12,456 nt of DNA, from UHGV virus genome UHGV-0079174; one strand, 5' to 3'. This document shows, piece after piece, positions 1 to 12,456 of the stretch. Origin of the DNA: a virus. A program made the position numbers and the translations under genes. The notes beneath the pieces were generated by a model that worked only from the letters and a program-made list of their open reading frames with translations, searched no databases and had not been told where the DNA came from. Every line of letters starts with the position of its first letter. Positions within the stretch are counted from its first letter, which is position 1.

Positions 1-187
1 CATGTACCGGAACTTTAGGTTTTTTTCGTTGAGCGTCGCGAATAGCTTCACTGTGTGGACGTGCTGCATGAACCGGGCGGCTGTCTAAGATTAGCAAGGT
101 CTAAATACACCTCCAGTTTCAGATGGTTCCTAAAGGTGATGCTTGTGGTTATGATAGACAGAAAGATAAGACTTCCGAGGGTTAGCT

Positions 188-1021
188 ATGAGTGATGGGT
201 GGTTAGATTCTACTATGCAAGCAATAAACGATAGGATTAAAAGCCCATTATGGGGATATATCATTCTTGCATGGGTATGGTTCAACTGGCCTAACTTAGC
301 AATGCTCTTTATGAGTGATGCGCCTGTTAAGTTTCGAATAGATTATATACTATCTCAGGAATATTTTTACGCTCATTATCTGCTTGCTCCTGTCTTTTTT
401 GGAGGTGTGCTAGCTGTTATTACTCCTTATGCTCAATGGTTACTTTCTCTTGCTCAAAAATGGGCTACAGATAAACACAATGAAAATGTTTATCTTACAA
501 AGGAAAAAGAATACTTGGATTCAATCAGGTTAACGGGGTTAAAGGTTCGGGCTGCCAGAGAAGAAGAGAAAGAAAATGCTAAAATTGATGCTGATATTAA
601 AGCGGAAGTAGAGCGTGGTAAGCGTGAAGAGCTGGTCACAGAAGAGCTACAGACAGAGAAGAAACTGATTCAGAAAGAAATTAATAATTTAAAGCAGTTA
701 GTATCTAAAGAAAAACAAACCATTGAAAATATCGAGATAGAAAAAGAGAGACTACAGGATTTGATTGTTGCCTCACTTGAGGTAATGGATGATTTCTTTA
801 AAGTTGATAATAGCCATTCATTACAGCAATTGAAGAGTAGGGTAGAAGAACTTTTAACAGTTTCTGATATTGAAGCTTCTACCATACGTAACGCGCTACG
901 ACAAAAGAAAGAGCTAACTTCATCACAGACAATGAAAATGTTCGATATGGTAGAGGCTAAAATTAAAAAGGAAAAAGAAAAAGGTAATAATATAGAGTCG
1001 AATGAATTAATTAACCAATAA
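188..1021 (+). CDS. Hypothetical membrane protein: two N-terminal hydrophobic helices followed by a long charged coiled-coil-like C-terminal region
   Basis: 277-aa ORF from the track. ATG at 188 preceded by GAGGG (177-181). Hydrophobic segments WGYIILAWVWFNWPNLAMLF and HYLLAPVFFGGVLAVITPYAQWLLSLA, then an E/K-rich heptad-like sequence. No catalytic motif recognised. Confidence 0.6.
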   Translation: MSDGWLDSTMQAINDRIKSPLWGYIILAWVWFNWPNLAMLFMSDAPVKFRIDYILSQEYFYAHYLLAPVFFGGVLAVITPYAQWLLSLAQKWATDKHNENVYLTKEKEYLDSIRLTGLKVRAAREEEKENAKIDADIKAEVERGKREELVTEELQTEKKLIQKEINNLKQLVSKEKQTIENIEIEKERLQDLIVASLEVMDDFFKVDNSHSLQQLKSRVEELLTVSDIEASTIRNALRQKKELTSSQTMKMFDMVEAKIKKEKEKGNNIESNELINQ

Positions 1022-1061
1022 TGCTATGCCTGTAAATAACAGGACATAAACAGGTTAGTAC

Positions 1062-1309
1062 CTATGCAATTTAACGGTATTTTTCCAAGTATCTATGCAA
1101 TCCTACACAGATTCTATACAGTATCGACATAGCCCCTTTTTATCATAACTTATTGAAATATATAGAGAATCTGTAAATCCTCTTTTCAGGGTAAACTGTA
1201 TCGTGTTAGTCGTTCCTCTCTCGACACTACATACAGTGCTATATACAGGACTATATAACGGTGTCTATGCAGTTGGTCACTATCAATATTCCCTTAAAGT
1301 GACTATCAA
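1062..1309. repeat. Cluster of short direct repeats (iteron-like) in non-coding DNA
   Basis: CTATGCAAT at 1062-1070 and 1093-1101 (31 bp period); CTATGCAG at 1265-1272; GT(C/G)ACTATCAA at 1276-1286 and 1299-1309 (23 bp period). No ORF in the supplied track in this stretch. Confidence 0.4.
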
Positions 1310-1457
1310 GCTACTTAATAGTTTCCTATATGAAAGTTAGGAGGCGATAGTTATAGTTCCTTCGTAGTTCCCCTTAAAAAATCACTTAGAGACATCTTAA
1401 TCTATATGCAGATTTCACGTAGAACACGATTAGTGCGTAAAACAGCTATTATGTTAA

Positions 1458-1486
1458 AAACACACTGTGTTTATATCAGTACTGAT
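1458..1486. promoter_or_regulatory. Two adjacent palindromes, operator-like
   Basis: AAACACA-C-TGTGTTT (1458-1472, 7-bp arms) and a perfect 12-bp palindrome ATCAGTACTGAT (1475-1486), 2 bp apart. Confidence 0.3.
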
Positions 1487-1637
1487 TTATAAGGGTTTTG
1501 TGTATTGGCTGATAAGAGGCTATACAGCACCTTGAGAGCATGTCTTATAAGTCATTGACACATAAGGTCACAGAAGTTTGTAGCTGTTACAGAGAAAACT
1601 GGATAGGACTTCACAGAATTATAAAATGTTACAGCTA

Positions 1638-1665
1638 TTGATAGATGAAATCTTCTTGATAGATG
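1638..1665. repeat. Exact 10-bp direct repeat TTGATAGATG x2
   Basis: Copies at 1638-1647 and 1656-1665, 18 bp period, in non-coding DNA. Confidence 0.4.
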
Positions 1666-1916
1666 CTTTGAAGTGTGGTTAAGGTTTCTTGAGGTGGAGT
1701 TAACAGATGCCATGAAGAAAGTCAATAATTGGTTATAGATATTTTAACTGCTTTTGCAAAGGGGGGAGCTATATCGTGAATCTGGGGCACTTAACAGCCA
1801 TCAATTGAGTGTAGATATTTTTGAAGATTATCGGTGAAGGGGAATGTAGAGGGGTTACTACGATATTTATAAAAATTTTCAGACTCTGAAAAGTTACTGT
1901 ACAGATTTTATACAAA

Positions 1917-1940
1917 CTAAAAAGGACTCCCGAAAGAGTC
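1917..1940 (-). terminator. Candidate intrinsic terminator on the minus strand
   Basis: Stem GGACTC (1923-1928) / GAGTCC (1935-1940), 6-nt loop. On the minus strand the hairpin is followed by TTTTAGTTTGT. No T-tract follows it on the plus strand. Confidence 0.3.
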
Positions 1941-1975
1941 CCTATAAGTCGATTTTTAACGTGGCTACGACAATC

Positions 1976-2029
1976 CACCCATACCGCACCAAACCTTACC
2001 CCACCGAACCGCACCCTACACGACCTTAC
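1976..2029. repeat. C-rich (plus strand) / G-rich (minus strand) imperfect tandem repeat
   Basis: CCGCACC occurs twice and CCTTACC twice within about 55 bp (roughly CACC..ACCGCACC..CCTTACC repeated). Compositionally unlike the flanking AT-rich DNA. Confidence 0.3.
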
Positions 2030-2550
2030 CTCGCCGGACACTGCCATAGAGAGTGTGCTTGGTTGCTTTGGAAGTAAACCTAGTACAGTAAGCCATTATA
2101 CATATCGAGATAGTAACGTCAAGAAACTTTTAACAGGAGGGGTTCCTATGGTCACATATTCCCTCTCTTCCCACTAAGTAAGTCTTAGCAGCACCTAAGC
2201 AACAATTGACTAACAGGTTCGGTAGAGTCTATCTCATAGGTCAACTTCATAAACTCAGAGTTAAGTTACCTTGAAAGATTCTACCAAGAAACTACACAGG
2301 TGTTATTTAGTCTGACTGTGAAGGGATATTTAACGGGAGGAGAGATACGATATAACCCGAAGGGAGAGTATCATCTTAACAATTATCTTAAGAATAAAAC
2401 TGAAAAGTTCTTAACAGATGACTACCTAGAAAGAAGGGAACGATAAGACCAGAGGTAGTGACCTTGTTAAACAGGCTGTTTCAAAGCTCTTAAGAGTCTG
2501 TTAAGTAAGGGCTATGTGAACAATCTTACCATTTTGTCAATGCTTTTGTC

Positions 2551-2596
2551 TTTAGCAAAAAGTGCTAAACTTAACAAAAAGCACTAAATGCTAAAG
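2551..2596. promoter_or_regulatory. Repeat and inverted-repeat cluster just upstream of the methyltransferase gene
   Basis: TTTAGCA (2551-2557) / TGCTAAA (2563-2569) inverted repeat; 15-mers CAAAAAGTGCTAAAC (2556-2570) and CAAAAAGCACTAAAT (2575-2589); AAATGCTAAAG at 2586-2596 recurs at 3716-3726, and a related AAATGCTA lies in the promoter spacer at 4181-4188. Confidence 0.3.
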
Positions 2597-2634
2597 AGAC
2601 GATTAAGAAATATACTAAGAGGGGCGCTTCGCTT

Positions 2635-3303
2635 GTGTCACATCCAATAATCAATGTTGGTCGTTATCATGGTGGTTCTGATGACTGGCGTACACCGTAT
2701 CGTTTATTTCATAATCTGCATCGTGAGTTTAACTTCAGTCTAGATGGCGCTGCAACTGAGCATGACGCATTGTTGCCACGGTTCACCGATGATATTCACA
2801 ATCAATCATGGGTTGGTGAACGGGTCTTCGTTAACCCGCCGTTTAGCATGGCTGAAAAGTTCCTCTTAAAAGCCCCTGAAGCTGATGTGTGTGTATGTCT
2901 GGTTCCGCTCAGGTCAAAGACAACTTACTGGCTTCGGTGTGTATATACAAACCCCTTCCTGCATGAGATTCGAACGTTGCACCGAGCAGTCAAATACCTT
3001 CCACCAGCAGGAAAGAGAGGTGTTGTAGTGCGCTCACCGTTTCCAAGTTGCGTTTTGATATACAGGAACACACCCCGCAAACCGAAAGTTGAAGTTACCC
3101 AGACAATCTATTGTGGTGACACAATGCTTTTACTTGCCGTGGTTAACAGGGGTGGTTTACGTGGAAGACCTCATATGCACAATGCACAGACGCTTGACAG
3201 GTTGATTAAAATGTATGACCAAGGGCAACCCATCAAGAGCATCGCAGAATCGCTAAGAATGCCTCTAAGCACCACTTACAGGATTGTTCAAAGGTTGGGC
3301 TGA
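2635..3303 (+). CDS. Phage Dam-family DNA N6-adenine methyltransferase with C-terminal helix-turn-helix extension
   Basis: 222-aa ORF, GTG start 9 nt after AAGAGGGG. N-terminal DDWRTP, then VFVNPPFS (N/DPPY/F-type catalytic motif) and LVPLRSKTTYW...SPFPS, the pattern of phage Dam-type orphan methyltransferases. The last ~40 aa (GQPIKSIAESLRMPLSTTYRIVQRLG) read as a resolvase/Hin-type HTH. Family assignment is from motif memory, not a search. Confidence 0.7.
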   Translation: MSHPIINVGRYHGGSDDWRTPYRLFHNLHREFNFSLDGAATEHDALLPRFTDDIHNQSWVGERVFVNPPFSMAEKFLLKAPEADVCVCLVPLRSKTTYWLRCVYTNPFLHEIRTLHRAVKYLPPAGKRGVVVRSPFPSCVLIYRNTPRKPKVEVTQTIYCGDTMLLLAVVNRGGLRGRPHMHNAQTLDRLIKMYDQGQPIKSIAESLRMPLSTTYRIVQRLG

Positions 3304-3350
3304 AGTTCTCATATAGAGCACTGATTACGAGAATGTTAAAGATGCGATTT

Positions 3351-3541
3351 CCCCTTTCTGGGGTTATTCGCTTTTTACTGGAAGGGTTATTTTACAGAGG
3401 TTTTTCAAACCCCCTCAATAATAGAAACGAGCAACAAACGAAGAGCGAGAAATAAAAATATTGAGACTGGTGAACGGGGGTCTGTAAAGATTGTTTAAGA
3501 AGTCGGTTAAGAAGGTGGCTCTCCCTGTCTGGGGTTATCGC
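3351..3541. repeat. Direct repeat CCCT..TCTGGGGTTAT(T)CGC x2, about 171 bp apart
   Basis: CCCCTTTCTGGGGTTATTCGC (3351-3371) and CTCCCTGTCTGGGGTTATCGCC (3522-3541), in DNA with no ORF in the supplied track. Confidence 0.35.
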
Positions 3542-3768
3542 CTTGTGTCTTAGTGAGTCTTGAAAGTTCTCTGTGAAGAGTCTTGTCAGTCCTTTATATT
3601 GGCTAATTACAACTCATTGAAAAAATAAGCATTTTTAGAAATTACTGTCAGAGGGGTGAATACTTGATAGATACAGCTTTCCGGTTCTGTCAAGCTATTT
3701 ATTAATGGATAGCACAAAATGCTAAAGATACCCCTATACCATCACGTACAGGGGGTTTTGAAGGGAGT

Positions 3769-4026
3769 TTAACGGGGTTCTGTGTGGTCGTTATCCTTAA
3801 GGTCAAGCGTCCATGTACGACCGAACAGTTTAAAGACAACAAGCACTCTGACGAGGACGTAGCGAAGTAGCAGACCTGCAATCAGCCCAACACCTCCACC
3901 AGCCCATACATCAGGTGACCCCAGCTCAGGAGGGAGATTTACCATTAGTTTTCCTTGTAAGACGCTCTCAATCGCATTCTGACACAAAAAAGTACCTGAC
4001 CTTATATGTTGACCTGAAGAGGCCAT
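3769..4026 (-). CDS. Hypothetical small protein with one hydrophobic segment; coding status uncertain
   Basis: 85-aa minus-strand ORF with hydrophobic stretch GGGVGLIAGLLLRYVLVRVLVVF. A candidate minus-strand promoter lies upstream (4126-4155). Weak ribosome-binding site. Confidence 0.3.
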   Translation of the reverse strand: MASSGQHIRSGTFLCQNAIESVLQGKLMVNLPPELGSPDVWAGGGVGLIAGLLLRYVLVRVLVVFKLFGRTWTLDLKDNDHTEPR

Positions 4027-4125
4027 TTAACTCGTTACAGAGCGATTGAAGAGGTCTGTGTGCAATGCAATAACCATGCGGCCATTCTCATAGCCACGCC
4101 TCATATTTTACTCTCCCATAAACCC

Positions 4126-4155
4126 ATTATACCACAGATGTTAATAAAATGTTAA
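4126..4155 (-). promoter_or_regulatory. Candidate sigma70-type promoter on the minus strand, divergent from the plus-strand promoter
   Basis: On the minus strand: -35 TTAACA (plus 4150-4155), 18-bp spacer, -10 TATAAT (plus 4126-4131). Confidence 0.3.
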
Positions 4156-4161
4156 AAATGC

Positions 4162-4190
4162 TTGACATTAGTCTTTGAAAATGCTAGTAT
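4162..4190 (+). promoter_or_regulatory. Sigma70-type promoter (first of two matching promoters)
   Basis: -35 TTGACA (4162-4167), 17-bp spacer, -10 TAGTAT (4185-4190), followed by TGTATATATAGG (4191-4202), which is identical to the 12-mer after the second promoter. First gene starts 51 nt downstream. Confidence 0.55.
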
Positions 4191-4240
4191 TGTATATATA
4201 GGTTAACACAGAATTAACAATTATAAGGACTAGCTTATGA

Positions 4241-4795
4241 ATGAGAGACGCAGAATTTAGAGCGATGCTTCAGGCATCGAGACAACGTAACAGATACAAC
4301 TCCTACAGCTACACAGACACCCCCACCAGCTACGAATTACCCAAGCTCACCCAAAAAGAACGCAAAGGCATTGACGAAGTAATTCGGGCAATTACACCGA
4401 GGGAACGTTATATGCCAACCAGAAAGAGCACGAAGAACAGCATCAAAAATTATTTGAATAACTTCGACAGCTATGAGCAACTACCAAGTAAGCTTGATGA
4501 TATTTTCATTGGATTCTGTAGAAGTGAAGGCCACCCGAAATACAACAAAAAACTATTTTATCTTCTAAAGAATCTTGACGAAATTAACGCATCCAGCGTG
4601 ACAAATCGTCTTCAGCGTCAAGCAACCAGACTTAGCTACGAATTACCAACCGATGCCTATTGTGCATTGCTTGCTGTAATGTGTGCAAAGCTAATTGGTA
4701 TTGTTGAACATCATATTGCCGTTGGTAATATTGAGCCAATGGAAAACGAGCAACCAGACTTTGAGTTTGACCCGTATATTTTGGAGGAATTTTAA
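4241..4795 (+). CDS. Hypothetical protein with acidic C-terminal tail
   Basis: 184-aa ORF, ATG at 4241 preceded by TAAGGA. C-terminal EPMENEQPDFEFDPYILEEF. No recognisable domain. Confidence 0.55.
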   Translation: MRDAEFRAMLQASRQRNRYNSYSYTDTPTSYELPKLTQKERKGIDEVIRAITPRERYMPTRKSTKNSIKNYLNNFDSYEQLPSKLDDIFIGFCRSEGHPKYNKKLFYLLKNLDEINASSVTNRLQRQATRLSYELPTDAYCALLAVMCAKLIGIVEHHIAVGNIEPMENEQPDFEFDPYILEEF

Positions 4796-4796
4796 A

Positions 4797-5078
4797 ATGG
4801 GAAATAAACACACATTAACCAGAGTTACAAAGACAGCCTTTGAAGAGCTTAACCGAATCAAAAACATTACAGGTCTGCCACACTCAGCAGTGATGAAGCT
4901 TGCAATTAACCGTGATATTAACGAACAAGATTTGCTTAATAGTCGCTTAGAGGCAGCAAGACACCATATCAGGATTAAGCAAGATGACCTTGATAGTCTG
5001 AAATATTTAAATGCTTTTGGACTGGATTTAGCAAGGTTACTAAGCATCAAAATTCACAAATTAGCGATGGAGGTTTAA
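4797..5078 (+). CDS. Small protein, possibly a ribbon-helix-helix DNA-binding protein
   Basis: ATG at 4797 sits 9 nt after GGAGG (4783-4787) and 1 nt after the upstream stop; the track's 4695 start would overlap the upstream gene by 100 nt. N-terminus KHTLTRVTKTAFEELNRIKNITGLPHSAVMKLAI resembles a strand-helix-helix pattern. Fold call is tentative. Confidence 0.5.
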   Translation: MGNKHTLTRVTKTAFEELNRIKNITGLPHSAVMKLAINRDINEQDLLNSRLEAARHHIRIKQDDLDSLKYLNAFGLDLARLLSIKIHKLAMEV

Positions 5079-5464
5079 TGTATGACTTTTATAAACATCG
5101 TGACCATTTGGTAAGATTTGACGGTAAAGTCTGGAAAGACGTAACACAAACCAATAAACCCAAGTTTACCCACCAGCAATTAGCCTCAAGATTTGATATC
5201 TGGACTGAAGCACAAAAAGATAATGGTGATTTCGAGTTTATCAGAGGTTTTGATTATTCTTACGAAGACGACCTTAAAGACGCCATTAAATTAATTGAGA
5301 ACTTCAACTCTATTAAAAATGGTGACAAGCACAAAGCCAACGGTAACAGATACGATAAAGATTTAATCATTGATGCAATCACCAAAGGACAATCACAAAG
5401 TTATATTTCTGAGAAATACGGCTTATCACGTAGTCAATACTACAAGATTAAAGCGTCTGTGTAA
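5078..5464 (+). CDS. Hypothetical protein with C-terminal helix-turn-helix
   Basis: 128-aa ORF. Its ATG overlaps the upstream stop (TAATG at 5076-5080), indicating translational coupling. C-terminal DAITKGQSQSYISEKYGLSRSQYYKIK is the same resolvase-type HTH flavour as the methyltransferase C-terminus. Confidence 0.6.
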   Translation: MYDFYKHRDHLVRFDGKVWKDVTQTNKPKFTHQQLASRFDIWTEAQKDNGDFEFIRGFDYSYEDDLKDAIKLIENFNSIKNGDKHKANGNRYDKDLIIDAITKGQSQSYISEKYGLSRSQYYKIKASV

Positions 5465-5476
5465 GTCTGTGAGAAT

Positions 5477-5523
5477 GAGTGAGACTCAAAGATGAGCTAC
5501 CCTATTACTAAGGTGTCTCACTC
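5477..5523. promoter_or_regulatory. 9-bp perfect inverted repeat GAGTGAGAC / GTCTCACTC separated by 29 bp
   Basis: Arms at 5477-5485 and 5515-5523, between two genes. No T-tract follows, so it is more likely a binding site or RNA structure than a simple terminator. Confidence 0.3.
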
Positions 5524-5602
5524 CCTCTGTAACCCGCATGGTTACTGGCCTCAGGATGGCTATTTTGGCAGATTTAAGATGTGTTTTTAGAGGATTTTAA
5601 AA

Positions 5603-5926
5603 ATGAATAATTTCCCGCTACAGATTTTCGTTGATAGCGACACCGCTCTGATGATTCAGGCTTTCAGTGATTCCGGTGTATCAATTGACTTTGATAAATT
5701 ACTAAAGCTAATGGCTGATAACTCAGAAACAATTGAAGATTTTATTCAGGAAATTGAAACTGGTGACCCACGTTTTATGTTTCCCGTTACCGACTCAAAC
5801 ATGAAGCGCCTTATTATTGAGGAAACTAACCGATACAGCGTTAGCCCTGAAAAATATCTCAAGGCGGCTATAGTAATTTTGTACGCTGACAATGTTTTGG
5901 TTACGGATTCGAAGGTGGTGCATTAA
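5603..5926 (+). CDS. Hypothetical acidic protein
   Basis: 107-aa ORF, ATG at 5603 preceded by AGAGGA (5589-5594). Confidence 0.55.
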   Translation: MNNFPLQIFVDSDTALMIQAFSDSGVSIDFDKLLKLMADNSETIEDFIQEIETGDPRFMFPVTDSNMKRLIIEETNRYSVSPEKYLKAAIVILYADNVLVTDSKVVH

Positions 5927-5991
5927 TGGAATTGGTGATTATCTGTTTTGTATTGATTGGTATGATTGCAGGTGCATCTATTAAAGTATAA
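5926..5991 (+). CDS. Candidate 21-aa hydrophobic micro-protein MELVIICFVLIGMIAGASIKV
   Basis: ATG overlaps the upstream stop (TAATG at 5924-5928). Almost entirely hydrophobic, one predicted transmembrane helix. Below the ORF-track size threshold. Confidence 0.3.
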   Translation: MELVIICFVLIGMIAGASIKV

Positions 5992-6015
5992 ATGTTACCA
6001 ATCTGTTAAAAGCTG

Positions 6016-6044
6016 TTGACAAATAACCTTGAGCATGACATAAT
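6016..6044 (+). promoter_or_regulatory. Sigma70-type promoter (second of two matching promoters)
   Basis: -35 TTGACA (6016-6021), 17-bp spacer, -10 CATAAT (6039-6044), followed by TGTATATATAGG (6045-6056). Confidence 0.55.
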
Positions 6045-6146
6045 TGTATATATAGGGAGAGCAATTCTCCTTGAATTAAAATATTAATCATTCTACATCG
6101 ATGATAACTATATTCTGAGTTGGAAAGGTGCAATGCTTTTCGCTAC

Positions 6147-6175
6147 ATGACCTCTTATATAACTTGAGAGGTCAT
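6147..6175 (+). promoter_or_regulatory. Hairpin in the long leader (9-bp stem ATGACCTCT / AGAGGTCAT, 11-nt loop)
   Basis: Perfect 9-bp inverted repeat about 100 nt downstream of the predicted start site. No T-tract follows. Confidence 0.35.
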
Positions 6176-6234
6176 CTCGAAAAGTCTTTGTTCATTCATT
6201 GAATCCTTTAGATGTTCTTTAATTTCTTCACCTT

Positions 6235-6270
6235 AGCCCTTTATAGCGTTTTAGTTATCTAGGGCTTTTT
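6235..6270 (+). terminator. Terminator-like hairpin inside the leader (possible attenuator)
   Basis: Stem AGCCCT (6235-6240) / AGGGCT (6261-6266), 20-nt loop, then TTTT (6267-6270). Lies about 190-220 nt downstream of the promoter and about 110 nt before the first gene. The long loop weakens the call. Confidence 0.3.
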
Positions 6271-6378
6271 CAGCTTTTAAAAAGCATACATGGCAAACGC
6301 TTTTAAGTCTCTTCTAAGTTCGTAGGCTGTCAGGTGTGCTTTTTAAAAACTGAATATTACTTAGAAGAGGAAAATGAA

Positions 6379-7086
6379 ATGGAAAATCTATATATTAGCG
6401 GTAGAAAGGTTGATAGCTTCGGTGACTGGTCGCCACAGACTGAACATCCAGCTATCACTATTCAGCGTAAAGAACACGATGAAAGAATTAAGCTTGAGCA
6501 ATCGTTAAAGATGTCACCAAAGGTAATTTCCTTTGTGTCTCCTGAGCCTCAAGAAATGCCAGATATCTGCAAAAGTGAAGCACTATTTAATCTTGAGCGT
6601 GAATATTACCCACAGTTAAAAGCACAGCGTATTAAACTTGATGACGCTTACAGCAAAGTTACCCTGATGCAATCAGCTATTGAGCCGTCAGAATTTGAGA
6701 TTCAGGATGAATTGTCACAGAAACCATTTGTCTATTACAAATATGAAGACAATGATGGTTTTGGTACTTTTCCTGAGAATATCCCAGACGTGATTAATAA
6801 TCTTTCTGACGGATATCGAATTGTGAAGATGGTTAAGGCATCAAGAGGTGCTGGTCAGTTTATTTACATGACTAATAAGAGCGATGAAGAACTCGCTGAA
6901 CTTGCTAGACAGAACATCTTGGCATCACGTAACAAGCAGCTTGATAGTGCTAAGTTGTATCTCTCAAGAGAGCTTCAGGCTATGAAAGAGCTTGTTAGTG
7001 AATATGAGTCGCAGAAGAAGGTTGCTATGCAGGCTGATATTGAGCAGCTTACGAAGATTTCTAGCAAATATGCAAAAGCTATTTGA
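6379..7086 (+). CDS. Hypothetical protein with C-terminal coiled-coil-like region
   Basis: In-frame ATG at 6379 preceded by GAGGAAAA (6367-6374); the track's GTG at 6334 has no ribosome-binding site. 235 aa from 6379. No recognisable domain. Confidence 0.55.
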   Translation: MENLYISGRKVDSFGDWSPQTEHPAITIQRKEHDERIKLEQSLKMSPKVISFVSPEPQEMPDICKSEALFNLEREYYPQLKAQRIKLDDAYSKVTLMQSAIEPSEFEIQDELSQKPFVYYKYEDNDGFGTFPENIPDVINNLSDGYRIVKMVKASRGAGQFIYMTNKSDEELAELARQNILASRNKQLDSAKLYLSRELQAMKELVSEYESQKKVAMQADIEQLTKISSKYAKAI

Positions 7087-7094
7087 GGTGATTA

Positions 7095-7403
7095 ATGAGT
7101 GATTTAACAGAACGCGATAAAAGAATTAAAGGGGTGATGGAACCTTTTGAAGATAGGTTCAATGAAATTAAAACGACTCTTGGTGATATTCAGGAGGTCA
7201 CTGAATATCTTATTGGTCGTATGGACGAAAAGCCTCTTGCCGAACTAAAGTTTGAGGGTCGAGATGATTTAACCTTCCTTATTAGAGACCTCAAGCGAGA
7301 TGTAGGACGGCTTGAATCTATCTTTGATAAAGCTGGTCTCTCAATACGTTACGAAATTGTAAAGAATGAACGCGGTGTAAAGTGCATTCACTTCTTGGAG
7401 TGA
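7095..7403 (+). CDS. Hypothetical small acidic protein
   Basis: 102-aa ORF. Extended Shine-Dalgarno GAGGTGAT (7085-7092) before ATG 7095. N-terminus MSDLTER. Confidence 0.55.
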   Translation: MSDLTERDKRIKGVMEPFEDRFNEIKTTLGDIQEVTEYLIGRMDEKPLAELKFEGRDDLTFLIRDLKRDVGRLESIFDKAGLSIRYEIVKNERGVKCIHFLE

Positions 7404-7425
7404 AAATTGAATTATGAGGTGATGA

Positions 7426-7632
7426 ATGATTGATTTAACAGAACGCTATGAACTCATCAGGGCAATTAGCGAACGATTGAAAGAACAACCCAACAAACCA
7501 AAACGAATCAAATCATCCACCTCTAAGCAAAATAACAGAATCAGAAGAATCGCTAAATGGTGTCTTGATAAATTACCAAGTGATTGTCAGATTGTCGGTG
7601 AAGATGGCAATTATTATCTTGTCAGACATTAA
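7426..7632 (+). CDS. Hypothetical small basic protein
   Basis: 68-aa ORF. GAGGTGAT (7416-7423) before ATG 7426. N-terminus MIDLTER. Its first ~37 bp are near-identical to the start region of the gene at 7095. Confidence 0.5.
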   Translation: MIDLTERYELIRAISERLKEQPNKPKRIKSSTSKQNNRIRRIAKWCLDKLPSDCQIVGEDGNYYLVRH

Positions 7633-7658
7633 AAAGAATTGGTTGGGTAAAAATCAAC

Positions 7659-7699
7659 GGGAGAGATTATCGAGTGACATCGGTAGCTCTCCCTTTTTT
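7659..7699 (+). terminator. Candidate intrinsic terminator
   Basis: Stem GGGAGAG (7659-7665) / CTCTCCC (7687-7693) followed by TTTTTT (7694-7699). The 21-nt loop is long for a canonical terminator. Confidence 0.4.
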
Positions 7700-7814
7700 G
7701 TATATGTGCTACGTGATGATTCGGATAAGAATTATCCTCATGAAATCTGTAAAGCTAATACCCACACTGAAAAATAGAATTTACGTACAACACGCTTAAA
7801 GAGGTGAAACATGA

Positions 7815-9863
7815 ATGAGCAAATTCACAGTTGATAGTTTTATCGTTGAACTAGGCTTCAATGAGAACGTTATTAAAGGTCTGCAAAAAGTTGAAAAGGC
7901 AGCTTTGCAGTCAGCACAAAGAATTGAACGTAATTTGAATAGAGCGTTTAAGGTCGATACCAAGCAACTTGACAGTAATTTAACGGCTTCTTTAAAGTCA
8001 ATGGAAGGGAAGATTAATAAGACCTTTGACCGTCTGGAAGCTAGAGCAAAAAATACTAAAGCTTTCCGTTTCACAAGTCAGGTTAATGACGCTATTAATC
8101 CTCCAAAACAACCAAGACAGCCACGAATTAGCGGAAACAGAGCAATCACAGCAGCTTATTCAGCTAATATGAGCAAGCTGAAAGGTCTTAACCCAATTGT
8201 CGAGAAATACATTAAGAGTCAGTTTTACGCATTAAGTAGTAAAGCTGGTCAGATGGATAACACCAAGTTTAATGAAGCCCTCGCTAAACTAAATTCAAGT
8301 GTACGAGAAGCAATTGCTAAAGCCAGAGGTCATACATCCACCAGCATTAACGGTGACAGAGCAGCTAGCAGTCTTGATAGTCTGTCTTCAGCAGCAGTTA
8401 AAACAGCAGGTGCATTTATCAGCTTTCAGGCTGTACTATCCGCTTATCAGCGAGTAATGGAAGTTGGCCTTCAACGTGCATCATCGGAAAGAAGTATTGA
8501 TTTCGTATTCGGTGACCAAAGTACACAGGTTAAAAAGTTCATTCAAGATTTAACTCAAATTACTGGTATGGACACAACCGAAACACAAGCACAATTTGCT
8601 TCATTTGGTGCATCTGCAACGACTACGATGGGTCTTGAAGGGTCAGAAGAGTTATTTAAAAACCTTACAGGTTATGCTCGTTTAATGGGTCGTTCAGATG
8701 AGCAGATTCAAAGAGCATTAACCGCAGTGTCACAGATGGCCTCTAAGGGTCAGGTGATGGCTGAGGAGTTGAAGGGGCAATTATCTGAAGCTTTGCCGGG
8801 TGCTACTCAGGCATTTGCAAAGGCTTTAGGTCTGACTGAAAAACAACTTTTCGATAAGATGAAAAATGGTGATGTTAAAGCCTCTGATGCACTTCCTAAG
8901 TTTGCTAAAGAACTTGGTGCACAGATTAATTCAAGAGGTGGCTGGAAAGCTATTCAGGACTCTACGCAGACAATGTTAGGGAACTTAAAGAATACCTGGA
9001 ATAACTCACTAACGGATATTTTCAGAGGTTCTGAAAATGGTCTGCAAGATTTTACACGAAGCCTAACAACGCTTTTAAACAGTTTAGGTGGAAGTGGTAA
9101 AAGTCTTGGTGAATCTCTTGGTAGCTTGATGACTGATATGTCGCATGGTGTGGATAGCCTGACCGATATCAGTTACAGAGTGAGAGCTTTCTTTGATGAG
9201 GTGACATTGGCTTACCGTGGTTTAACCGATGAGCAAAAGAAAGTAGTTGATGCTTTAGGTTCTGGCTTGATTAATAGTTTAAAAGTCTTGGCTGGTGTTA
9301 TTGCTGTAAATAAAGTTGTTGGTGTAACCAGAAGTATTTACGGGCTTATGACTGCTATCACAAGATTAGGTCAGGTCGCTGATACAACAGCGGATAACGT
9401 GAATAGAAAGAACGGGAAACCATCAAGGTTTAATCTTGGGAATATGCTATTAGCTGGTAGTGCTATCTATGCAGGTTATGAGAGATTAGCTTCTACGCCT
9501 GAACGAATGGAAGCACAAGCTAAATTACCAGAGCTGGCTAAAGAGTCTGGACTTAAGCCAGTATTTACTATGGACGATGTGAAAGGTTGGTTTAATAGTG
9601 CTGCTATGAATCTTGCTAACTTCCAGCATCCAGAATTAATCACCATGAGACAAGATGCGGCATTAACGAATACGGATATCCAAAGCCTGAGAGATGAAAT
9701 TAGTGCTTTGAGCAAACGTATTCAGGAGCCTGTGAAAGTTTCACTTGGTGGTGAAGTTGCCATTAAACCAGATGAAACCAGCTTTATGACCTTTAGCAGT
9801 AATATCTACGACCAATACGCAGAAGCTACGCTATTAAGTTCATCATTCCCAGAAGATGATTGA
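7815..9863 (+). CDS. Tape-measure-like protein (phage tail length tape-measure domain)
   Basis: 682-aa ORF, AAGAGGTGA before ATG 7815. Central segment KGQVMAEELKGQLSEALPGATQAFAKALGLTEKQLFDKMKNGDVKASDALPKFAKELGAQ matches the conserved tape-measure domain pattern from memory. A/S/G/L-rich helical composition with internal hydrophobic segments. Confidence 0.6.
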   Translation: MSKFTVDSFIVELGFNENVIKGLQKVEKAALQSAQRIERNLNRAFKVDTKQLDSNLTASLKSMEGKINKTFDRLEARAKNTKAFRFTSQVNDAINPPKQPRQPRISGNRAITAAYSANMSKLKGLNPIVEKYIKSQFYALSSKAGQMDNTKFNEALAKLNSSVREAIAKARGHTSTSINGDRAASSLDSLSSAAVKTAGAFISFQAVLSAYQRVMEVGLQRASSERSIDFVFGDQSTQVKKFIQDLTQITGMDTTETQAQFASFGASATTTMGLEGSEELFKNLTGYARLMGRSDEQIQRALTAVSQMASKGQVMAEELKGQLSEALPGATQAFAKALGLTEKQLFDKMKNGDVKASDALPKFAKELGAQINSRGGWKAIQDSTQTMLGNLKNTWNNSLTDIFRGSENGLQDFTRSLTTLLNSLGGSGKSLGESLGSLMTDMSHGVDSLTDISYRVRAFFDEVTLAYRGLTDEQKKVVDALGSGLINSLKVLAGVIAVNKVVGVTRSIYGLMTAITRLGQVADTTADNVNRKNGKPSRFNLGNMLLAGSAIYAGYERLASTPERMEAQAKLPELAKESGLKPVFTMDDVKGWFNSAAMNLANFQHPELITMRQDAALTNTDIQSLRDEISALSKRIQEPVKVSLGGEVAIKPDETSFMTFSSNIYDQYAEATLLSSSFPEDD

Positions 9864-9875
9864 TAATAGTCGAAT

Positions 9876-9930
9876 GCTACGTGAAATCTCCTGAACAGAT
9901 ATACCCACCAAAAATTATTTTTCACGTAGC
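9876..9930. promoter_or_regulatory. 11-bp perfect inverted repeat GCTACGTGAAA / TTTCACGTAGC separated by 33 bp
   Basis: Arms at 9876-9886 and 9920-9930, between the tape-measure-like gene and the next gene. TTTCACGTAG also occurs at 1413-1422. Confidence 0.35.
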
Positions 9931-10020
9931 TCACGCTTAACAGATAAAACACTTAAATATCAAAGGCTTGGTTAAAAATGATTAAAATACACTAAGTCTT
10001 TGAAATCAAAGGAGAATATA

Positions 10021-10794
10021 ATGATTTACACTAATCAACTTCGTTACAGTGGCAAAGATGGTATCTATTTCCACTTAAGAGATAATGTAGATGCCTTCTT
10101 AACCTTATCAGCAACTGAAAACATGGAATTTGACAGCCCTATGCAGGTGACTACACAGAACATGCAATCAGGGCAAACCGTAACAGATAACGTGCAAAGA
10201 GCACCCAGAACAATCACTATTAGTGGTGTCGTTGTAGTTGGCTATGAAGGAAGCTTATTATTAACTCGTCAGGGTCAATTAGTAGAAAATTTCATCGACA
10301 CTCTTGAAAGCTGGCGTGACCAGAAGCAGATTATTTCTGTCATCTGTCGAGACGGTATCAAAATTGATGATTCCATTATTACGAGTTTTAAAGCCTCTAA
10401 AGATGTTGGAATTTCAAATGGTCTAAGAATCCAGCTAACTTTTCAGGAAATTAACTTCAAAGCCATTGTGGGTCAGACTGATATCTCTGCTGCAACTGGA
10501 AAGACCGCTACCACAAATGATGGTGGTGCTACTTCTAAGAAAAATACGGGTAACACTACGACAAGTCTAGGTAATGGTATGTTGATGTGTCAGGAGCTAT
10601 ATAATCGCTCTACGAGTGAACTCACTAATGAGCAACTTCAAGCCCGTATCAATTGTGGTAGAAGTGTCAAAGTTGAGAACGGAAAAAGCACCTTCTCAGA
10701 TGCCGCTAATGAGCAAGCTTCGAAAGTGCTTAGTAATGCTGGTACAGGTAGTACTTTGAAGAAATTTTCTGTAAATCCTAACAAGCGATACTGA
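10021..10794 (+). CDS. Hypothetical protein, possibly tail-associated by position
   Basis: ATG at 10021 sits 6 nt after AAGGAG (10009-10014); the track's TTG at 10000 is less likely. 257 aa from 10021. C-terminal third is T/G/N/S-rich low complexity. Function is inferred only from lying immediately after the tape-measure-like gene. Confidence 0.5.
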
Positions 10795-10808
10795 CGATAG
10801 AATCTCAA

Positions 10809-12332
10809 CTATATGATAACCTCATCAACATCTATTAAACCCCTCTCAGTGACTTCAGAAAGCGACTGTATAGCCTCTGTAACGTCCTCTGAGGGGTTTT
10901 CTGTTATTGATAGGTCAATTACCTTACCGTTGTGAAAACTTACTTTACAGCGACGTTTAGCAGTATTTAAAACGACCTCTTTAACAGCACTTTTGATTAT
11001 CAGTTGTGCTTCAATCCTTCCCGCCTTTGTAGTCAAGTCACAATCAGACAAACAACCAACATCAATAGATTTAAGGCGTTGTGTCTCCTTCTCGATATCC
11101 GCATCAACCTGTGATAGCTCACCTTTTAACTGCTTTAGTTTGATGGTAATAGCTGACAAATCTTCAATTTCAAGTGATAGCTGTACCAGCTTTTCAATAT
11201 TGCTTGAGATGTGTTCACGGTGTAGCTTCAGCGTATCTATGGTATTCGTCATATCGCTATCAAATCGGTCAAGACGAGATAGCAGGGTAAGTAATGTACC
11301 ATCAGTTTGCTTACGTGAAAGTCCTTTAGCACTACAACGGTTTTCATTACGAAGGGGACAACGATAAATCCCGCTTCTTGTATCGCTAAAGCCTGTGATA
11401 ATCAAAGCATGACCACATTCAGAACAACGGATAACACCTTTGAAAAGATTCACAGCCATTGGCTTATCTGAAGCAGGTTTTCTACCGTAACGAGAATATG
11501 ATAGTTGTTGAACTTTGTAGAATGTTGTTTCATCTATAATTGCAGGATAATAACCAGCTATCTCCTCACAGCCTTTAGGTGTGAAGTAACCAATTACAGA
11601 GCGATTTTTCAGAAGGTCTTGTACTGAGGTTTGACCAAATGAACCCGCTTTATATTGGTTAAGCGTCTGGTGACCTTCATCATTAAGAGTCCTGACAATC
11701 TCCCAGATAGACTTACCCTCTAACCGTAGCTGAAAGCACCTCTTCACAGTCTCCACTTTCTCAGGGATTACAGAGAAGCTTTTACGGTCATCATTAAGCT
11801 TAAGCCATGCAGGACAACGTTTAGAAATCTTGATACCTTCAGAGATGAGTTCTTTTTTACGGTTCCATGCAGCTTGTATACGCTCAGACTTCCTCAAACT
11901 CTCCTCATGCGACCGCTGCATTATCAGAATGCTTTTAATCAGAGCTAACGGGTCTTTAAGAGATTCTCGTGTGTAATGTTCACCATCGGACAAGGTGACC
12001 ACATCTACACCAGAGCGAAGAATGTTTCTGAGTAGCTCACTTGCTTGGTCTACATCTTGACGTGACAGACGGTCAAGAGATTCTATCAAGAGCGTATCAC
12101 CAGCTTTAACAAGCCCTTTCTCGATAGCGGTTAAAAAGTCACCTAAGCCACCTTTCAAGTGCTTACCAGTGAACCCACTCACCCCCAAATCACGGAAGGA
12201 TAAATCTTGGTCAAGGTAGTACTCAGGATGAGCCTTAAGCCAGTCATTAACCATCTTAGACTGTCTGCGTAGTGAGTCGCCTTTGGCTTGTCGCTCAGAA
12301 CTGAATCTGATGTAGCTGATTACACGTTTCAT
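10809..12332 (-). CDS. Large serine recombinase (probable integrase of the element)
   Basis: 507-aa ORF. N-terminal resolvase-type catalytic domain with YIRFSSERQ (nucleophile-serine motif, compare YIRVSTEEQ), a Cys-rich zinc-ribbon-like segment CSECGH...YRCPLRNENRC, and a C-terminal coiled-coil region. This is the domain order of phage-type large serine integrases. Confidence 0.85.
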   Translation of the reverse strand: MKRVISYIRFSSERQAKGDSLRRQSKMVNDWLKAHPEYYLDQDLSFRDLGVSGFTGKHLKGGLGDFLTAIEKGLVKAGDTLLIESLDRLSRQDVDQASELLRNILRSGVDVVTLSDGEHYTRESLKDPLALIKSILIMQRSHEESLRKSERIQAAWNRKKELISEGIKISKRCPAWLKLNDDRKSFSVIPEKVETVKRCFQLRLEGKSIWEIVRTLNDEGHQTLNQYKAGSFGQTSVQDLLKNRSVIGYFTPKGCEEIAGYYPAIIDETTFYKVQQLSYSRYGRKPASDKPMAVNLFKGVIRCSECGHALIITGFSDTRSGIYRCPLRNENRCSAKGLSRKQTDGTLLTLLSRLDRFDSDMTNTIDTLKLHREHISSNIEKLVQLSLEIEDLSAITIKLKQLKGELSQVDADIEKETQRLKSIDVGCLSDCDLTTKAGRIEAQLIIKSAVKEVVLNTAKRRCKVSFHNGKVIDLSITENPSEDVTEAIQSLSEVTERGLIDVDEVII

Positions 12333-12361
12333 TCTTTACCACCATAAAAACTAATAGCGCG

Positions 12362-12390
12362 ATTGTATCGCTTTAGGTGGTGTATTTAAA
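12362..12390 (-). promoter_or_regulatory. Candidate promoter for the recombinase gene
   Basis: On the minus strand: -35 TTTAAA (plus 12385-12390), 17-bp spacer, -10 TACAAT (plus 12362-12367). The -10 overlaps the palindrome GCGAT-TGT-ATCGC (12359-12371). Confidence 0.25.
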
Positions 12391-12456
12391 CGTGTCTGAT
12401 GAAAATCACCCGATTAACGCCGCGCTGATGTAAACCGCGATTAAGCGTTTGTTCCT

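Follow-up and report, generated by a model that had tools for sequence, protein, structure and literature searches.

Candidate sister promoters with phased TGTTA boxes in a satellite-like island of Escherichia coli

The stretch of DNA analyzed here, hereafter the window, was the 12,456-nucleotide (nt) virus genome UHGV-0079174, which carried two near-consensus promoters, P1 and P2, each followed directly by the same 12-mer. The window sequence was identical to a stretch of the chromosome of Escherichia coli MS20645, and one complete island of about 12.3 kb, spanning window positions 90-12400, split the DUF72 gene yecE. P1 and P2 were among the best-scoring sites of the window in a consensus scan, and a third predicted promoter pointed leftward from the region upstream of P1. 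The promoter features were as follows.

4162-4190, plus strand: core of P1, with the -35 hexamer TTGACA (4162-4167), a spacer of 17 base pairs (bp), TG (4182-4183) and the -10 hexamer TAGTAT (4185-4190); direct reading, promoter scan 10/12.
4191-4202, plus strand: first copy of the 12-mer, predicted to span the discriminator of P1, the start site (4196-4198) and the first bases transcribed.
6016-6044, plus strand: core of P2, with the -35 hexamer TTGACA (6016-6021), a 17-bp spacer, TG (6036-6037) and the -10 hexamer CATAAT (6039-6044); direct reading, promoter scan 11/12.
6045-6056, plus strand: second copy of the 12-mer, predicted discriminator and start site (6050-6052) of P2.
4126-4155, minus strand: divergent promoter, TTAACA, 18 bp, TATAAT, with TG; scan 11/12; it points at a leader of about 175 nt and an open reading frame (ORF) of 58 amino acids (aa).

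Direct reading and the scan agreed with the first-pass annotation that both promoters had a perfect TTGACA and a 17-bp spacer. At P1 and P2, TG preceded the -10 hexamer by one base and was kept in almost all relatives of the island. Together with the -35 hexamer, the A2 and T6 of the -10 hexamer and the spacing, this gave both sites the sequence of extended -10 sigma-70 promoters, and P1 and P2 were very good candidates for such promoters, conserved in every relative examined. The reported identity of the 12 nt after both -10 hexamers was also correct, and the identical run in fact extended over 14 nt (ATTGTATATATAGG, at 4189-4202 and 6043-6056), with a chance expectation of 0.00 (none of 200 shuffles had such a pair). 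The 12-mer TGTATATATAGG itself occurred exactly twice in the window, both times on the plus strand, and a search of the element for more copies returned only those two, with none further at up to two mismatches. Comparison of the flanks showed that the P1 and P2 cassettes agreed at 45 of 68 positions, compared with 18.9 +/- 3.7 for other 68-mers of the window (next best 34), and that both sites were preceded by ATGTTA(A/C)-N5-TGTTAA-N6-TTGACA. Because the likeness spanned 68 nt, it belonged to the whole promoter cassette and not to the 12-mer alone. The spacers, which had been described as different, were indeed not identical, but they were not unrelated either, since 8 of the 17 positions agreed in direct reading.

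To compare the cassettes across the family, 33 relatives were gathered by homology to the first P1 gene, whose protein was 56-96% identical to that of the window; the promoter sequence was not used as a query. The comparison comprised 32 distinct relatives at P1 and 23 at P2, which was present in 24 relatives. The P1 block at 4122-4208, spacer included, was conserved to 90-100% at nearly every position. It covered the divergent promoter and both upstream boxes, together with the P1 core (-35 hexamer, spacer and -10 hexamer), positions 1-9 of the 12-mer and GTTAACA. In the coding sequence beside P1, many columns reached only 25-60% conservation. Within the block, the divergent promoter (4122-4155) was 97-100% conserved at most positions, the -35 hexamer of P1 was 100% conserved, the spacer 72-100%, and the -10 hexamer varied only at the internal positions 3 and 4. 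Positions 1-9 of the 12-mer were 81-100% conserved, and positions 10-11 (A4200, 47%; G4201, 34%) formed the least conserved stretch of the block, with tail variants of different lengths among the relatives (TAGG, TAAG, TGG, TGAG, TTGG, GG, CAG). The P2 copies kept the -35 hexamer and most of the spacer, and the nine bases after the -10 hexamer took three forms: TGTATATAT in 13 relatives, TTTAAGTAT or TTTAATTAT in 8, and GGTAATAGG in 2. Two of these three alleles kept the skeleton T-N-T-A-N-N-T-A-T, and the forms were not correlated with the type of the downstream gene. Most P1 copies retained the TGTATATAT core, several relatives differing from it by a single base, and all 12 bases were identical at both promoters only in this island and in one relative (L015). 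Since 10 of the 23 distinct P2 copies had another A/T-rich sequence, the 12-mer was not required at P2, and the conservation of the whole P1 block around a variable 12-mer tail indicated that selection was not focused on the 12-mer. The earlier suggestion that selection acts on the start-site region was thus not borne out.

Counted at standard spacing from the -10 hexamers (4185-4190 and 6039-6044), the transcription starts would lie at 4196-4198 and 6050-6052. With this canonical start, the 12-mer spanned about -6 to +6 and its TA run about -4 to +4. We infer that the 12-mer comprises the discriminator, the start site and the first 4-6 transcribed bases. Its identity at the two promoters would be best explained by common descent or sequence exchange (recombination) between the cassettes, together with ordinary promoter constraints. 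The first nine bases would suit a strong promoter, with a G two bases after the -10 hexamer and easily melted TA steps; a G at this position is contacted by sigma region 1.2 and favors long-lived open complexes. A scan of IMG/VR with TTGACA-N23-TGTATATAT gave matches that were nearly all due to chance, and only an island relative (L097) had two, which were 1,856 bp apart.

The pattern TGTTA-N6-TGTTA, with a period of 11 bp, occurred three times in the window, compared with 0.07 expected, and 0 of 200 shuffles reached three.

4139-4154, plus strand: P1 upstream pair, at about -58 and -47; present in every relative covering the P1 upstream region.
4204-4219, minus strand: P1 downstream pair, inverted TAACA-N6-TAACA, at about +8 and +19.
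5993-6008, plus strand: P2 upstream pair, spaced from its -35 hexamer as the P1 pair is.

The P2 upstream pair was found in 23 of the 24 relatives with P2, with L006 carrying TGCTA in one box. The four boxes of P1 were symmetric about position 4179 in the P1 spacer, as (4139+4219)/2 and (4150+4208)/2 both equal 4179, and the proximal TGTTAA box, read as its reverse complement, was the -35 hexamer of the divergent promoter. Across the 250 kb of 34 island sequences, all 91 phased pairs fell at the P1-upstream, P1-downstream or P2-upstream site; a script tagged 89 of them, and inspection assigned the other two, one upstream of P2 in L015 and one downstream of P1 in L025. The boxes therefore showed the fixed phase, promoter specificity and family-wide occurrence of a shared operator, and from these sequence properties they appear to be a better candidate for the shared control element than the 12-mer. 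P1 and P2 probably share regulation. Of the shared operator proposed earlier, a shared control element remained a candidate in the form of the phased TGTTA boxes, whereas the 12-mer was not upheld as its site, its TGTATATAT core being present in only 13 of 23 distinct P2 copies and its 3' part varying at both promoters.

The two promoters preceded units of different content, and the P2 unit related the island to phages.

4241-5991, plus strand: P1 operon, with genes of 184, 93, 128 and 107 aa and a 21-codon hydrophobic ORF (5926-5991); ORF list and RefSeq annotation.
6053-6073, plus strand: 5'-proximal hairpin of the P2 transcript; minimum-free-energy fold and covariation.
6057-6378, plus strand: structured leader of the P2 transcript; a terminator-like hairpin followed by a U-tract lies at 6235-6270, and the next gene starts at 6379.
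6379-10794, plus strand: P2-driven module, with a 235-aa protein, two small paralogous ORFs, a tape measure gene (7815-9863) and a Dit-like baseplate gene (10021-10794); Pfam TMP_3 and Dit_like.

The tail module (7095-10794) had the same gene order as the chaperones, the tape measure gene and the following gene of Felixounavirus. The baseplate gene was 93-94% identical to that of Felixounavirus at the nucleotide level (over 10045-10600), and the start of the tape measure gene was 72% identical; the encoded tape measure was 682 aa long in the island compared with 747 aa in the phage. These similarities tie the island to Felix O1-type phages as its presumed helpers. In the Felixounavirus ESCO45, 13 of 16 phased TGTTA pairs lay within 0.8 kb of noncoding DNA at 73.5-74.3 kb, compared with an expectation of about 0.2 per 30-50 kb. 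This array region was conserved and unannotated in at least 223 Ounavirinae records, often at the end of the record. Because the same boxes occur in the array of the helper phage, their reader could be a phage protein. A profile of the cassette found exactly two copies per island and none in the phage. In ESCO45, the region at 73.45-74.65 kb (L003:23450-24650) held two classes of repeat, TAACA(A/G)G boxes at 11-bp phase and C(T/C)(C/G)TATAG(G), and TATAGG occurred there 10 times compared with 0.38 expected.

From these comparisons, P1 and P2 are judged to be ordinary sigma-70 promoters in a novel element. We assign a probability of about 0.6 to the reading that they are sister copies of one strong promoter, co-regulated through the TGTTA boxes and not through the 12-mer. 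The cassette of about 68 bp would combine a pair of TGTTA boxes at an 11-bp interval with an UP-like, A-rich tract, the consensus -35 hexamer and the 17-bp spacer, and would continue with the TGn extended -10, a -10 hexamer that retains the critical A2 and T6 positions, and a start region rich in A and T. The P1 and P2 cassettes would head the two rightward units of the island. P1 would drive the small regulatory operon, and the RNA driven by P2 would open with a hairpin and pass one or two terminators in a structured leader before reaching the tail genes. A DNA-binding protein, encoded either by the island (with the 93-aa product as a candidate) or by the helper phage, would read the boxes at both promoters. 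The 93-aa product contained two strand-helix-helix-like motifs, of which the putative strands (K/R)HTLTR and (H/K)HIRI were invariant in both allele classes and the helices diverged, and it gave a faint match to DndE (E = 0.023). The ribbon-helix-helix repressors omega, CopG, Arc/Mnt and TraY read arrays of short phased repeats.

Several observations weigh against this reading. Near-consensus promoters would be constitutively strong, and no repressor was identified. The distance from the boxes to the -35 hexamer varied by 1-2 bp among the relatives, which is unusual for an activator bound to one face of the helix, and the proximal upstream box overlapped an A-tract that may be no more than an UP element; at P1 the box doubled as the leftward -35 hexamer. 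TGTATATAT at P1 appeared better conserved (81-100%) than a neutral discriminator need be, and the skeleton retained in two P2 alleles hints at a constraint beyond A/T richness. The placement of +1 within the 12-mer followed from spacing rules alone. The tandem ribbon-helix-helix arrangement of the 93-aa product was recognized by eye only and is a lead, not a finding; a PDB profile search with this protein was empty, and its AlphaFold model (pLDDT 49) was too poor to use. Only shallow alignments were available for modeling, so the models of both the 184-aa (pLDDT 43) and the 93-aa products were unusable.

The RNA predicted from P2 was analyzed in relation to the start region. The hairpin at 6053-6073 had 99% of its cells paired across 13 relatives, compared with 58-78% for slid partners, and three of its pairs showed compensatory double changes. 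The last 3-4 bases of the P2 12-mer formed the 5' arm of this hairpin. In all three P2 alleles the hairpin began 2-5 nt past the predicted start, which argues that transcription starts in or just before this segment. At P1 the tail of the 12-mer instead abutted a TTAACA box, and the tail would thus serve a different purpose at each promoter. Some relatives had a 26-nt insertion, itself a hairpin, after TGTATATAT. A tiny hairpin-forming insertion, ...ATCCGAA(G)TC..., was found directly after TGTATATAT in some relatives and at varied places in the P2 start region or leader (L013:3015-3045, L011:5063-5095, L034:5925-5965, L032 and L006); it looks like a miniature mobile element.

The leader as a whole folded more stably than shuffled sequence, with z-scores of -5.4 in the window and -7.6 in L005. 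Of 24 relatives, 22 had a leader hairpin of the GCCCT...AGGGC type with a U-tract, or two of them, located around +165-195 and +265-300, and in L014 one leader hairpin was inverted as a unit with its structure preserved. A conserved TCTTCTAAGT, an anti-Shine-Dalgarno sequence at 6310-6319, can pair with about 6359-6371, the ribosome-binding site of the gene at 6379. The leader segment AAGGTGCAATGCTTTTCG (6127-6144) was nearly invariant, and a hairpin with a variable top also lay in the leader. Terminator-like hairpins ahead of the P2 genes make some read-through control plausible there; no observation linked such control of the tail module, by read-through or at the RNA level, to the 12-mer. 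The leader could be a riboregulator or a stand-alone small RNA, by analogy with SviR of the Vibrio cholerae PLE satellites. A search of Rfam with the window gave zero matches at E <= 1. The leader was also considered as an antisense RNA against phage transcripts. It had 23 exact complementary 11-mer matches compared with about 8.5 expected and 7 12-mer matches compared with about 2.1 expected; these matches overlapped and were not independent, so no clear enrichment was found, and the longest complementary run (14 nt) lay in a part of the leader that was not conserved.

Three other readings gave the 12-mer a function of its own. One of them held that the 12-mer or its TATATATA core is an operator at which a dimeric protein of the island or of the helper phage overlaps the start site and controls both operons jointly. 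The conservation of the first nine P1 bases, the identity of TATATATA with its own reverse complement, the restriction of the 9-mer to P1 and P2 in the islands, and the 6- to 36-fold enrichment of TATAGG, TATATAG and TGTATA in the noncoding array of the helper phage are all consistent with this. However, the element was missing from 10 of the 23 distinct P2 copies without a matching change at P1 or in the island gene alleles, its 3' third varied in sequence and length, its last bases were part of an RNA hairpin at P2 and neighbored a TTAACA box at P1, and the full 12-mer was not found in the phage. Such an operator is therefore considered unlikely. In a further reading, the segment would be a second, overlapping promoter of the middle or late type, used when the helper phage modifies or replaces the specificity of the polymerase, so that the island fires on infection. 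PLE activation depends on the transcriptional program of the helper (PMC13595925), and the T-N-T-A-N-N-T-A-T skeleton of two P2 alleles would agree with a recognition sequence of this kind. The 9-mer was nowhere in the ESCO45 genome, however, the 12-mer had no meaningful match there at up to two mismatches, the TATAGG sites of the phage lacked a common promoter context, and the consensus -35 hexamer, the 17-bp spacer, the TG and the -10 hexamer already accounted for the site. These results leave a phage-dependent promoter very improbable, and the lack of matches in ESCO45 also led to the rejection of the 12-mer as a copy of a helper-phage promoter. TATAGGGAGA at P2, which we take to resemble the start of a T7-type promoter, was rejected as such a promoter because the likeness holds for P2 only, and a second overlapping sigma promoter (-35 TTGAAA or TTGAGC, 16 bp, TATAGG) was weak because its -10 candidate lacked T6.

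The first-pass annotation had proposed that the 12-mer, with its -10-like TATATA, is a sigma-dependent promoter-proximal pause element of the kind used by lambdoid Q-type antiterminators. A sigma-70-dependent pause would then load a Q-like protein in the style of lambdoid PR' and allow read-through of the leader terminators into the tail genes. The layout at P2, a strong promoter with a terminator-like hairpin, or two of them, at about +165 to +300 before the structural genes, resembles PR'-tR', and the P2 spacer was conserved, as expected of a Q-binding element. Sigma region 2 reads a -10-like element by its A2 and T6. These two bases cannot coincide within one hexamer of an alternating TA run, and direct reading found no hexamer of the 12-mer with both; TATAGG, the sole candidate in the transcribed part, lacked T6. 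The canonical start placed the element, moreover, at -6 to +6 instead of at the transcribed +1 to +10. The same 12-mer stood at P1, where the leader was only about 40 nt long, and while 22 of 24 relatives had a terminator between promoter and genes at P2, P1 had none; the core was also absent from 10 of 23 P2 alleles. Zero Q-family matches were found among the island proteins, even at E <= 10, and searches of Pfam, PHROGs, NCBIfam and PDB sequences revealed neither a Q antiterminator nor another known regulator among them, although a very distant analogue may have escaped such sequence searches. With no A2 and T6 hexamer and no Q-like gene found, neither the pause element nor the proposed use of a lambdoid Q-type antiterminator was supported, and hardly any credence is given to this explanation.

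A fourth proposal concerned the boxes and not the 12-mer. The cassettes may act as a helper-sensing switch, in which a Felixounavirus DNA-binding protein, one that normally sits on the phage TGTTA array, would bind the boxes of P1 and P2 and turn the island on; or an island protein would read its own promoters as well as the phage array and couple self-regulation to interference with the phage. If the box reader is encoded by the phage, the island could sense infection, and TGTATATAT, the words of which were enriched in the phage array, could be a second phage-derived recognition element. We regard this proposal as tentative, with the odds against it. The switching-on of satellites of virulent phages is still little understood (PMC13595925).

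Relatives of the island were found in 508 of 5,426 complete E. coli genomes (about 9%), chromosomal every time, and further relatives were found in E. albertii, a Citrobacter species and metagenomes; some relatives sat between yciI and tonB rather than in yecE. The conserved gene order began with a variable left part, a small leftward ORF, and P1 with 4-5 small genes, and continued with P2, a leader of 330-440 nt, the 235-aa protein, small ORFs, the tape measure gene, the Dit-like baseplate gene and the recombinase gene. The ends of the island were marked by the following features.

90-114 and 12376-12400: imperfect inverted repeats bounding the island.
10809-12332, minus strand: large serine recombinase of 507 aa at the right end of the island, with Resolvase, Recombinase and Zn_ribbon_recom domains.

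The promoter cassettes were the constant joints between reassorting gene modules, in agreement with the sister-promoter reading. The family was mosaic, with genes occurring as alleles of about 95% and about 60% identity that reassorted independently (window 4241-7086 compared with L004-L036). The 128-aa gene (5078-5464) was absent in most relatives, and several had a short ORF and an HNH endonuclease gene in its place. The 21-codon ORF at 5926-5991 on the plus strand (MELVIICFVLIGMIAGASIKV) overlapped the stop codon of the 107-aa gene and lay just 5' of P2. On the other side of P1, the 58-aa ORF (3769-3945, minus strand) encoded a membrane protein behind the conserved leader of about 175 nt (region 3769-4119) and was served by the divergent promoter. 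Both of these small hydrophobic ORFs are toxin-like or holin-like in character. The small paralogous ORFs at 7095-7403 and 7426-7632 had a common 38-nt start region with 89% identity. In public databases all island proteins were named hypothetical except for the automatic names "transposase" and "tape measure protein", and a literature search on this E. coli island family or on Felixounavirus satellites returned no description, only PLE parallels. Like PLE-type satellites, the island combined a large serine recombinase with part of a tail module akin to that of a virulent myovirus, and it looks like an uncharacterized E. coli counterpart of the V. cholerae PLE satellites.

The left part of the island contained 1.6 kb without credible genes (1021-2634). 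A likely small RNA gene was located there at 1915-2122 on the minus strand, with a strong promoter (TTGACG, 16 bp, TATAAT; 2122 to 2095), about twelve 5-nt units with an invariant GGT (NNGGT), a hairpin covarying with phage copies, and, at 1943 to 1922, an intrinsic terminator. ESCO45 had four homologues of it in noncoding gaps (33.95-34.2 kb and 35.34-35.6 kb). Its period of a triplet plus 2 nt recalls RNAs bound by ring proteins such as TRAP, and it had no Rfam match. Short patches at 1866-1915, 2218-2241 and 2428-2470 were similar to the noncoding array of ESCO45 (73.06-74.25 kb), and TTAACAG occurred 13 times across the window compared with 2.8 expected, with many copies in 1021-2634. The island may have borrowed these array-like patches and motifs as signals for replication or packaging.

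By itself, the 12-mer amounts to the normal start region of a strong promoter that has been duplicated, and its weight comes from its location. The P1 and P2 cassettes are the sole conserved control points of an uncharacterized island family whose tail genes come from Felix O1-type phages, a group employed for typing and therapy. The TGTTA boxes common to the island promoters and the phage array suggest a testable route by which a virulent helper could be sensed.

Among known systems, the closest parallel to the island is the V. cholerae PLE of the virulent myovirus ICP1. Both are islands of about 12-18 kb with a large serine recombinase, a tape measure protein shorter than that of the helper, ORFs in the position of chaperones and a gene in the position of the baseplate hub. 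PLE11 contributes a shorter tape measure protein, a chaperone and a baseplate hub of its own to chimeric tails (PMC12987554). The host and the helper are different, and the likeness is one of gene content with no sequence relationship claimed; the baseplate gene of the E. coli island is 93-94% identical to phage DNA, whereas 41% protein identity applies in PLE11.

The layout of P2 recalls lambdoid PR'/tR' in its strong promoter and its leader of about 170-300 nt with intrinsic terminators before virion genes. It differs in having no -10-like hexamer competent for sigma in the early transcribed region and no Q homologue that could be found, in sharing its 12-mer with the terminator-less P1, and in the dispensability of this element in 10 of 23 P2 alleles. 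Like the extended -10 sigma-70 promoters of virulent phages, P1 and P2 combine TTGACA, a 17-bp spacer, TGn and a -10 hexamer with A2 and T6, and they share with virulent-phage early promoters an A-tract at about -45 to -40, an A/T-rich start region and, two bases past the -10 hexamer, a G. In contrast to such early promoters, P1 and P2 are predicted sites, homologous to each other along 68 nt and accompanied by phased TGTTA boxes. The intergenic promoters of the Felixounavirus ESCO45 have the same general build, TTAAAA, 4-6 nt and TTGACA, but they are not homologous to the island cassettes, the common part being only a generic UP tract and the -35 hexamer. The boxes themselves are most like the operator arrays of ribbon-helix-helix proteins, in which short boxes one helical turn apart, direct and inverted, flank a promoter; unlike those arrays, the boxes described here come from sequence comparison, and the same boxes also stand in the array of the helper phage.

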